Shown here: in pieces, positions 24,873 to 28,118 of the stretch
How positions within the stretch are numbered: the first letter of the stretch is position 1
Layout: every line of letters starts with the position of its first letter
Assembly: GCF_003334385.1 (NCBI RefSeq)
Contig: NZ_QOWN01000050.1
Origin: Escherichia coli
GTDB lineage: Bacteria > Pseudomonadota > Gammaproteobacteria > Enterobacterales > Enterobacteriaceae
Direction: 5' to 3' (one strand)
DNA length: 33,016 bases
The notes under the pieces: generated by a model
Database searches by the model: none
What the model saw: the letters and a program-made list of their open reading frames with translations, nothing else
Told to the model about the DNA's origin: nothing
Program-made: the position numbers and the translations under genes

Positions 24873-27553
24873 ATATCCTCATGAAATTCTTCAAGTTCAG
24901 GGGCAGTTTGCTGGGGAAGTGTAACACGAAAACAGGCACCACCTTCCGGTCGGTTGAACGCGGTAATAGTGCCCCCGTGTACATCCACTATCGCCCGACA
25001 AATTGCCAGTCCAAGCCCTACCCCCGGTACTGCCGACTCTTTATTCCCGCGAGCAAACTTATCAAATATCGTCTGCTCCTGGCCTGGCGGAAGACCGGGG
25101 CCGTTATCCCAGACATCCAGTTGTAGATTTTCGCCCTCAACGTGGGCATCGATACCAATTTCGGCCTGCGCACCCGCATATTTCACCGCGTTCTCCAGCA
25201 GATTAATCAGCACCCGTTCAAAGAGTGGCCCGTCAACGTGGATTAAGGTCAGCGGTTCTGGCAGAGAAAGATTGATGGGCGACGATAAACCCGGTTCCAG
25301 CATTTGCAGCGCGCTGCCGACTACTTCTTCCAGCGTTAACCACTCTTTCTTCAAATTAAAGCCGCCGGACTGAATTCGCGCCATATCCAGTAGATTATTC
25401 ACCAGTCGGGTAGTGTTCAGCACATGCTGACGGATCTCGCTGGCCTGGCGGGCGTGGGGTGATCCTTCGCTTGCCAGATCGAGCGTTAAGATTTCTGCCT
25501 GACCAAACAGCACCGTAAGCGGCGTGCGTAAATCATGCGAAAGCGCCGCCAGCAGGGCGTTGCGGATCTGTTCACGTTCGCTTGCCATCCGCGCCTGTTC
25601 TTCGCTGGCGGTTAGCGTCAGCCGCTCAAGGGCATTGGCGACTAACAGCGTAAACGTCTCCAGCAGGCGCTGCTGTTCCGGGATCATCAACTGGCGCAGA
25701 TTCCCCGGCTCCACCACCACCAGCCCGTAGGTTTTCTCGCCGCTTTTTAGCGGCAAAATCTGGTACGGTACACCGGGTAACGTGTCGGTGCCCGCGCCCG
25801 CAGGCAGGCCTTTATCAAAACTCCACTGCGCGATGGCATCGTCCCACGGCGTCATTCCTTGCGGATGTGTTAACGGCTGCAATTTACCGTTGTCATCGGG
25901 CAACAACACCTGACTGCGGGCATGAAACGTGGAGGCAATAAATTGTTCGCTGGTGGCAGCGATATCCTGCGGACTGCGGCCCACCGCCAGAGCTTTCGAC
26001 ATTTCATATAAGTGCCGTGTGCGTCGCTCGCGGTAACGGGCTACCCGCGCCTGATAACGCACGCCAGCAGTAAGGTTCCCGATCACCAGCCCGACGGTTA
26101 ACATCACCGCGAAGGTCAGCAGATATTGCACATCAGAGACGGCGAGCGTGCCGCGTGGGGCGATAAAAAAGAGATCGAAACTCACTACATTAATGACGGT
26201 GGCAACCACTGAAGGCCAGCGTCCATAAAATAGCGCCACCACCACCACGCCAAGCAGATACAGCATCACCAGGTTGGCGGCATCAAACGCCATCAGCCAC
26301 TGCATGGCAATTAAGGTGATAACGGCGCATAACGCGGCGGCAACCACGCATCCCTGAATTTGTACACGCCACTTGTCTTTAAAAGAGCGGTTATCCGGCG
26401 CGTTGTTAATCGTGCGGGCGGGTGGTTCATCAAGCGCGACCAGCACCTGATCGAGATCGGGGGCGATGCGCGCCAGTCGGTCAGCAAACGTTTCCCGACG
26501 CCACCAGCGGCGCGAGGCCGGGCGACCGAGAATAATCTTGCCGAGATTATGTTCACGGGCATAACGCACTACCGCTTTCTCTTCCGCTGGATCAGAAAGT
26601 GTTGCCGTCTCCGCGCCCAGTTCCTGCGCCAGACGTAAGGCGCTGAGAATTGCCCGACGTTTTTTTTCCGGTAAGCGGTGCAGGGCAGGGGTTTCAACAT
26701 ACACCGCGTGCCAGACGCTACCCAGCCGTGACGCCAGCCGCGCCGCTGCGCGGACCAGTTTTTCGCTGCCGGTGTTATGGCCGATGCATAAAAGGATCGC
26801 GTCGCGCGTGTGCCACACTTTCTCTTCGCCAGGATGCCCCCGCCAGGCGCGCATTTGCTCATCAACGCGATCGGCAGTACGGCGCAGTGCCAGTTCGCGC
26901 AGGGCGATCAGATTACCTTTGCGGAAAAAATGTTCAATGGCGCGCTCCGCCTGCTCGGCAATATAGACTTTGCCTTCTTTCAGCCGCTGGCGCAGATCGT
27001 CCGGGGGCAAGTCCACCAGCACCACGTCGTCGGCGGCATCGAAAAAAGGATCGGGCACGGTTTCCCGTACCTGAATTCCGGTGACGCCGCTGACCACATC
27101 ATTCAGACTTTCCAGATGCTGAACGTTGACGGTAGTGAAAACATCAATGCCAGCTTCCAGCAGTTCTTCGATATCCTGCCAGCGTTTGGGATGACGGGAA
27201 CCTGGCGCATTACTGTGCGCCAGTTCGTCCATTAAGATCAGCGCCGGGCGGCGGGCGAGGGCGGCATCGAGATCAAACTCGCTGATATGCCGCCCACGGT
27301 ACGCCTGGCGTTTTAACGGCAGAACAGCCAGCCCTTCCAGCATGGCGGCGGTATCTTTTCGCCCGTGGGTTTCTACCACGCCAACCACAATATCCAGCCC
27401 TTGCGCCCGCAGTCGCTGGGCTTCTGCCAGCATCGCCCAGGTCTTCCCGACGCCTGCACAGGCACCGAAGAAAACTTTCAGCTTCCCCCGATGCGGCGCG
27501 GCAGTTTGTTCCAGCAGACGATCGGGGTCGGGACGTAAGGGTTCGTTATTTAT
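24869..27553 (-). CDS. kdpD: sensor histidine kinase KdpD, 894 codons; canonical start position reads ATA
   Basis: Sequence from [41 protein letters not shown] onward matches KdpD, but the codon where Met1 is expected is ATA (+ strand TAT at 27551..27553). The only nearby alternative start is TTG one codon upstream (27554..27556). Confidence 0.85.
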
Positions 27554-28118
27554 CAAGTTTATCCAGCGCCAGATTGAGTTCAACAATGTTGACAACCGGC
27601 TGGCCGATATATTTCACCAGCGGTTGTTGGCTGTATTTTGCGATCAGTTGCGTGAGCTGTTCAACGCTGAGATTACGCGCTTTCGCCACGCGTGGGATTT
27701 GCCAGGCCGCCGCTTGCGGGGTGATATTATTGTCCAGCCCGCTTGCCGATGCCGTCACCAGTTCAACCGGAACGCTCGCGCTGGCATCCGGGTTAGCGGC
27801 CCGTAATGCAGCAACGCGTGCGGCTATTAGTTTATCCAGCTCAGGGTTACTGACCGCCAGATTGCTCCCGCCAGAAGCCTGTGGATTATAGGGCATTTCT
27901 GCCGTTGCCGACGGGCGACCATGAAAATAGCCGTTGCCGGTAAAATTCTGCCCGATTAATGCCGAACCGCGCACCGTATCACCTTCACGAATCAACGAAC
28001 CATTGGCCTGCTAGGGAAACCACCATTGCCCCAGTACGGTGGTCAGCAGCGGGTAAACGCCGCCAGTAATCAATAACAGAAAGATAAATGTTGATAATGC
28101 CGGACGTAATCCACTCAT
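27546..28118 (-). pseudogene. kdpC: KdpC subunit of the Kdp ATPase with a premature amber codon at position 36
   Basis: From ATG (28116..28118) the frame reads [39 protein letters not shown](TAG, + strand CTA at 28011..28013)[13 protein letters not shown]... and then continues in frame to the normal C-terminus. Confidence 0.8.

Follow-up and report, generated by a model that had tools for sequence, protein, structure and literature searches.

An inherited ATG-to-ATA change at the kdpD start codon of an Escherichia coli lineage, in a genome with a decaying Kdp regulon

The DNA analyzed here is a 33,016-nucleotide stretch of the Escherichia coli chromosome (contig NZ_QOWN01000050.1 of assembly GCF_003334385.1; hereafter the window, meaning the whole stretch), which contains the kdpFABC-kdpD-kdpE operon. 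At the position where kdpD of E. coli K-12 MG1655 starts with ATG, the window has ATA, and the change behind it, a G>A transition at the third position of the start codon, is real and has been inherited within a natural, phylogroup-A-like E. coli lineage. We favor, with a probability of about 0.55, the reading that ATA is a leaky (hypomorphic) start mutation of that lineage, which is without practical effect in this particular genome and its early-decaying Kdp regulon. The Kdp pump is genetically dead in this genome, irrespective of the level of KdpD.

The base change at the kdpC/kdpD junction and its distribution

The window aligns collinearly with MG1655 over 33 kb at 99.94% identity, with 18 substitutions and two single-base indels. 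The minus strand is the coding strand of all kdp genes in the window, and the position of the window gene as kdpD in the operon kdpFABC-kdpD-kdpE was confirmed. From 27556 to 27546, the minus strand reads TTG ATA AAT AA when split into kdpD codons and (C)TT GAT AAA TAA when split into kdpC codons. Read further in each direction, this is CTG GAT AAA CTT GAT AAA TAA for kdpC and TTG ATA AAT AAC GAA CCC for kdpD, where MG1655 has GAT GAA TAA and ATG AAT AAC, respectively. The MG1655 counterpart is GATGAATAA, and the sole difference between the two is at 27551, where the plus strand has T in the window and C in MG1655. In the reference the two genes overlap by 8 nucleotides (ATGAATAA). The initial annotation of the window had proposed that a G>A change (C>T on the plus strand at 27551) removes the ATG of kdpD and also alters the last residue of KdpC, and the alignment to MG1655 bears out both proposals: the C-terminus of KdpC is ...LDKLDK in the window vs. 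...LDKLDE in MG1655 (E190K). The features on which the argument rests are as follows.

27551 to 27553, minus strand: kdpD codon 1, ATA (ATG in the reference), from the alignment to MG1655
27546 to 27551, minus strand: KdpC codon 190, AAA (Lys; GAA, Glu, in the reference), then the kdpC stop TAA at 27548-27546
27554 to 27556, minus strand: in-frame TTG, one codon upstream of ATA, which would yield an 895-residue KdpD beginning M-I-N-N-E-P-L
27562 to 27564, minus strand: weak Shine-Dalgarno-like GGA, best anti-Shine-Dalgarno duplex -3.1 kcal/mol
24869 to 27553, minus strand: kdpD frame, 894 codons plus stop, otherwise intact, with G200E (26955) and Q510R (26025)
24195 to 24872, minus strand: kdpE, whose GTG start at 24872-24870 overlaps the kdpD stop TGA at 24871-24869 (GTGA)

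For KdpC, the exchange probably does no harm: 11 PDB entries have in common a KdpC construct sequence with 18 residues added at the C-terminus, and a change of charge at residue 190 is therefore unlikely to matter.

The window is 100% identical to NCBI assembly GCA_012738655.1 over 21.4 kb and to two contigs of Logan run ERR1948963 (14.2 and 7.4 kb). The 14.2-kb contig, which covers kdp and is listed for six samples, holds ATA together with all the other lesions discussed below, while the 7.4-kb contig is listed for five samples. Reads with C at 27551 had been named as what would overturn the proposed change; the independent assemblies of the lineage have T there. As the identical base is carried by a complete genome, an NCBI draft and Logan assemblies listed for five to six samples, an error of sequencing or assembly at 27551 can be set aside with near certainty.

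Among 5,426 complete RefSeq E. coli genomes, a 30-mer centered on ATA was found in one, SCU-104, which was also retrieved by a 61-mer search, while the exact K-12 61-mer at the junction was present in 3,275. The KdpC protein with Lys at position 190, which marks the allele, has been recorded in a large protein collection on no fewer than 105 contigs, and 219 index blocks of the collection contain it; these blocks include isolates as well as ENA and JGI metagenome assemblies. The ChiP protein of the window is on record on eight contigs. A search of metagenome contigs with a 22-mer around ATA returned just one chance match, to an unrelated AT-rich contig. The ATA allele is rare, yet it is part of a real circulating lineage. 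Rather than being private to the window genome, it marks a natural clade whose kdp operon is otherwise undamaged.

Start sites available to kdpD and the predicted product

The initial annotation had pointed to a TTG adjoining the lost ATG, and this codon is indeed in frame and directly upstream, and independent gene callers start KdpD there. It is also found in MG1655, where it is formed by the kdpC codons CTT GAT. The spacing from the GGA to the start is 5 nucleotides for TTG and 8 nucleotides for ATA. In reporter measurements, initiation at AUA amounts to ~1-2% of that at AUG, or to 0.02-3% under more physiological conditions, and UUG falls into the class of 10-100% relative to AUG (bioRxiv 10.1101/063800). 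A canonical start codon is missing at the reference ATG position, and the adjoining in-frame TTG is a candidate for its replacement. The overlap of the kdpC stop with the kdpD start and the weak Shine-Dalgarno sequence of the downstream gene give kdpC/kdpD the features of a translationally coupled pair. For either allele, the prediction is of a junction with little base pairing. Refolding of the mRNA round the start by the G>A change was also considered and is unsupported, the ATA and ATG alleles giving the same minimum-energy fold over an 81-nucleotide stretch.

Public annotations place the start of this gene at two different codons. The NCBI (PGAP) coding sequence of kdpD in SCU-104 begins on ATA, with the same coordinates as in K-12, and the protein beginning M-NNEPL is found under NCBI accessions for both the SCU-104 type and the window's own type. 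The gene callers behind the Logan, ENA and JGI records begin KdpD at TTG, which gives an 895-residue protein beginning MINNEPL. Both starts appear to be predictions of gene callers only. A reference kdpD that has the same ATA together with a validated TTG start had been named as evidence that would count against a start-codon lesion; SCU-104 supplies the reference with ATA, but not the validated start, and literature searches yielded nothing usable on a validated start of kdpD, an internal promoter for kdpDE or the loss of kdpD in nature. Met is aligned at position 1 in 138 of 145 distant KdpD homologues, which says little about the codon, as called proteins begin so.

Based on these features, we infer that with the ATG lost, residual initiation would take place mainly at the in-frame UUG, 5 nucleotides from the weak GGA, with a smaller share at AUA, and that it may be independent or may be carried out by ribosomes that have just ended kdpC, whose stop lies a few bases further downstream. 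Either start would yield the complete KdpD, one residue longer in the case of UUG, but its amount would be a fraction of normal. Because the GTG of kdpE overlaps the kdpD stop, as is typical of translationally coupled genes, KdpE output would probably drop along with that of KdpD. The altered KdpD/KdpE stoichiometry that had been predicted from the start-codon change is therefore doubtful, since both proteins probably fall.

The extra residue itself should be harmless. Homologues differ at residues 2-6 of KdpD in both sequence and length, and the conserved part starts with R7-P8-D9-P10; an N-terminus as variable as this should therefore tolerate the additional residue from a UUG start.

An alternative is that AUA itself is the working start, used by re-initiation of ribosomes that finish kdpC at UAA, so that the normal 894-residue protein is made. 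The PGAP start agrees with this possibility, being placed on ATA both for SCU-104 and for the lineage of the window, although that placement rests on homology. The stop/start overlap and the weak Shine-Dalgarno sequence fit initiation that depends on coupling, and initiation at AUA is measurable; however, UUG is roughly ten times better in reporters, lies only 3 nucleotides away and has a good Shine-Dalgarno spacing, and in this genome a nonsense codon in kdpC (W36*, see below) keeps most ribosomes from the end of kdpC. We regard AUA as the principal start as improbable.

Far less probable still is initiation within the gene, at AUG codon 41 or GUG codon 56, which would produce a truncated KdpD that lacks the Walker-A-like motif (residues 30-38) and has a deregulated phosphatase. 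The phosphatase is deregulated in KdpD truncations without the motif (PMC2714519), and the Shine-Dalgarno-like duplexes at the two codons (-4.3 and -5.3 kcal/mol, respectively) are predicted to be somewhat stronger than the native one. The reference, however, has identical sites and is not known to initiate there, and the mutation does not favor them.

Beyond its start, the kdpD frame encodes what is expected of a KdpD sensor kinase. The recorded Pfam domains of this exact 895-residue product are KdpD (PF02702), DUF4118 (PF13493), GAF_3 (PF13492), HisKA (PF00512) and HATPase_c (PF02518), which is the domain architecture of such kinases, and three residues differ between this product and K-12 KdpD. 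Among 145 full-length family representatives, 71 have Glu and 6 have Gly at position 200, and 58 have Arg and 20 have Gln at position 510; the N-terminal domain of Pseudomonas syringae KdpD (PDB 2r8r) also has Glu at position 200. G200E and Q510R were considered as damaging lesions of KdpD and rejected, as each introduces the commonest residue of the family. A further substitution, A45T (equivalent to window position 27421), is found in a subgroup of the ATA clade (L010, L011 and L017), near the Walker-A-like motif and at a position that is Ala in 130 of the 145 representatives.

Lesions of the window lineage and the history of the allele

Two further lesions of the same operon, both judged far stronger than the start-codon change, had been overlooked when attention was fixed on that codon: a nonsense mutation in kdpC and a 1-bp deletion in the operator upstream of kdpF.

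27546 to 28118, minus strand: kdpC, broken at codon 36 by a nonsense mutation
28011 to 28013, minus strand: kdpC W36*, TAG for TGG (mutation 28012 C>T on the plus strand)
28127 to 31960, minus strand: kdpF (31871-31960), kdpA (30198-31871) and kdpB (28127-30175), all intact
32043 to 32058, minus strand: KdpE operator of the kdpFABC promoter, half-site S1 TTTATA at 32058-32053, spacer CTTT at 32052-32049, half-site S2 TTTACA at 32048-32043

Gene callers divide kdpC of the window into pieces of 35 and 142 residues, and the 35-residue remnant of KdpC is essentially just a membrane helix. KdpC is required for the function of the KdpFABC pump, and W36* therefore leaves no functional high-affinity K+ pump here, whatever the level of KdpD. 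W36* disables a structural gene that is essential to the decaying regulon; KdpC is a subunit in the solved KdpFABC complex (PDB 5mrw, 6hra and 7bgy). W36* was found in none of the 5,426 complete E. coli genomes and occurs in independent assemblies of the lineage, including Logan ERR1948963. In this genome, the new stop would also remove most of the ribosome traffic through the kdpC/kdpD junction. Rho-dependent polarity caused by W36* may add to this on read-through transcripts.

In the operator, the spacer is 4 bp long instead of 5 bp, a run of seven T having become a run of six; MG1655, KE58 and SCU-104 all have CTTTT. The T6 form is present in 3 of the 5,426 complete genomes. The KdpE half-sites with their 5-bp spacer have been defined previously (PMC3264566), and we infer that the altered spacing would hinder an OmpR-family regulator from binding in tandem. 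The locus is a Kdp regulon at an early stage of decay.

Over the 33 kb, SCU-104 and the window have six derived bases in common, i.e., those for nagA A354T, chiP P387L, a silent change in ybfF, KdpD G200E, ATA and the base at 32113, and the two are therefore related by descent here. In SCU-104, kdpC and potE are intact and the operator has the T7 run, and in SCU-104 together with eight further ATA-bearing loci, kdpFABC, kdpD, kdpE and potE are all intact. Seven changes are private to the window lineage: kdpC W36*, the 1-bp deletion in the T-run upstream of kdpF, KdpD Q510R, potE W201*, an insertion in potE, chiP D248G and a silent change in chiP. Because the ATA-bearing relatives keep kdpC and the operator intact, the start-codon change came first and W36* and the operator deletion later. 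The comparison of sequences thus shows an order in which the disabling changes follow ATA and arise only in the sublineage of the window. In the clade at large, the start-codon change is probably tolerated.

This order is also what would be seen if ATA abolished meaningful KdpD synthesis, and KdpE synthesis with it through polarity, so that Kdp induction was lost throughout the clade and the later lesions are neutral decay. AUA is a very poor start and the native Shine-Dalgarno sequence is weak; ATA preceded the other lesions, and the window lineage then gained two more in the same regulon. The substitutions within kdpD could point the same way. In the ATA lineages, there are four lineage-specific missense changes (G200E, A45T, Q510R, and R362H on a second haplotype described below) vs. 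two synonymous ones, A45T affecting the conserved Ala mentioned above, whereas 36 synonymous and two to three missense changes separate the old kdpD haplotypes. The ratio of missense to synonymous changes is 3:2 in the ATA clade and 3:36 between the old haplotypes (Fisher p = 0.013), which could mean relaxed constraint and hence a null allele. Moreover, the clade is young, its members differing by 0-3 single-nucleotide polymorphisms per 8 kb, and an intact kdpD frame in so young a clade is no proof of function. The ratio and the age of the clade may both count against a leaky start that still supplies KdpD.

Set against complete loss are the adjoining in-frame UUG with its suitable Shine-Dalgarno spacing, the intact kdpFABC-DE in all sampled members outside the window lineage, and the direction of G200E and Q510R, which both go towards the family consensus. 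A similar excess of missense changes is also found outside kdp on the same short branch, where nagA A354T and chiP P387L stand against one synonymous change. Such an excess is expected for very recent polymorphism and appears not to be specific to kdp. We consider a null allele unlikely, and a leaky start remains our preferred reading of ATA.

ATA also occurs on a second, divergent kdp haplotype. Two loci, L013 and L015 (GCA_036290265.1 and GCA_022974995.1), carry ATA but lack G200E and have ~50 differences from the window downstream of 27365. The closest complete genome to the L013 haplotype is NT1N31, which has the same mosaic haplotype but ATG; over 8 kb the two differ at four sites, i.e., ATA, R362H, one change private to NT1N31 and one private to L013. 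Between 29408 and 27365, the main and the second ATA haplotypes are identical, apart from the W36* site, which is private to the window. Given this identity, ATA on the second haplotype may equally well have come from an independent G>A transition or from recombination with the main clade over a patch of <2 kb.

The second haplotype bears on the possibility that lower KdpD was selected and that the same G>A transition arose more than once for this reason. The near-identity of L013 and L015 to the ATG-bearing NT1N31 fits such recurrence, and the main clade is widespread (219 index blocks, metagenomes included). A short recombination patch from the main clade, however, fits the second haplotype equally well, and two occurrences among very many sequenced E. 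coli are unremarkable. Adaptive down-tuning is thus improbable. Little weight is likewise given to a broader proposal that a successful clade keeps KdpD/KdpE in working order by starting KdpD at a near-cognate codon, either UUG or AUA, aided by the kdpC/kdpD overlap, and that ATA recurred under selection for lower KdpD dosage.

The window as a whole is a chromosome segment with tRNA genes (from glnU), asnB, nag, glnS, chiP, fur, pgm, potE-speF, kdpEDCBAF and ybfA. In potE, which encodes the putrescine-ornithine antiporter (20084-21404, minus strand), W201* and a 1-bp insertion lie 23 bases apart (20801 and 20824), and gene callers divide the gene into pieces of 213 and 217 residues. Neither of the two potE changes is present in any of the 5,426 complete E. 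coli genomes. In the chitoporin gene chiP (11472-12878; sites 12214, 12631 and 12704), D248G and the silent change are private to the lineage and P387L is common to SCU-104. The seven lineage-private changes are thus confined to kdp, potE and chiP, and the remaining ~22 kb are free of them. In the ybfG region, the TAG at 19527 that makes a pseudogene in MG1655 is TGG in the window, KE58 and SCU-104, and the DUF2625 gene is intact here.

Comparison with known systems

Three practical points may be made. One gene is public with two starts, ATA by NCBI and TTG by others, which calls for caution with its annotation. A view confined to the start codon would miss an operon-disabling nonsense codon 460 bases upstream, and the useful outcome here is the corrected context, i.e., kdpC W36*, the operator spacer and the double lesion of potE. 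Strains of the ATA clade with intact kdpC, such as SCU-104, are a natural test of the minimum need for KdpD; no new mechanism is implied.

The locus is the well-known kdpFABC-DE with a derived and already-deposited allele, an ordinary start-codon polymorphism at a locus that is beginning to decay. Compared with kdpFABC-kdpDE of E. coli K-12 (b0694-b0698 and b4513), the window has the same genes in the same order and neighborhood and the same kdpC/kdpD and kdpD/kdpE overlaps, and differs from it in the ATA of kdpD, KdpC E190K and W36*, KdpD G200E and Q510R, and the 4-bp operator spacer. The kdpD of SCU-104 (NZ_CP053284.1, WP_128491229.1) is like that of the window in ATA, KdpC K190, KdpD G200E and the upstream marker at 32113, and unlike it in its intact kdpC, T7 operator, Q510 and intact potE.

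Genes of the infC/pcnB type also have a near-cognate codon at the annotated start, from which weak initiation is expected, as for kdpD of the window. In infC and pcnB, however, AUU is the normal functional start, whereas ATA in kdpD is a rare derived allele next to a canonical UUG. A non-canonical start conserved among relatives is not what was found, ATA being present in 1 of the 5,426 complete E. coli genomes. Because ATA is not the conserved state and is at most a putative start, kdpD does not count as a gene of the infC/pcnB type.

The window most resembles early operon pseudogenization in that several independent changes that disable or may disable it have accumulated in one regulon (start codon, W36* and operator), with potE hit twice in addition. 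Unlike early pseudogenes, kdpD of the window is free of frameshifts and premature stops, and the missense changes it carries bring it closer to the consensus; it is therefore not demonstrably a pseudogene.

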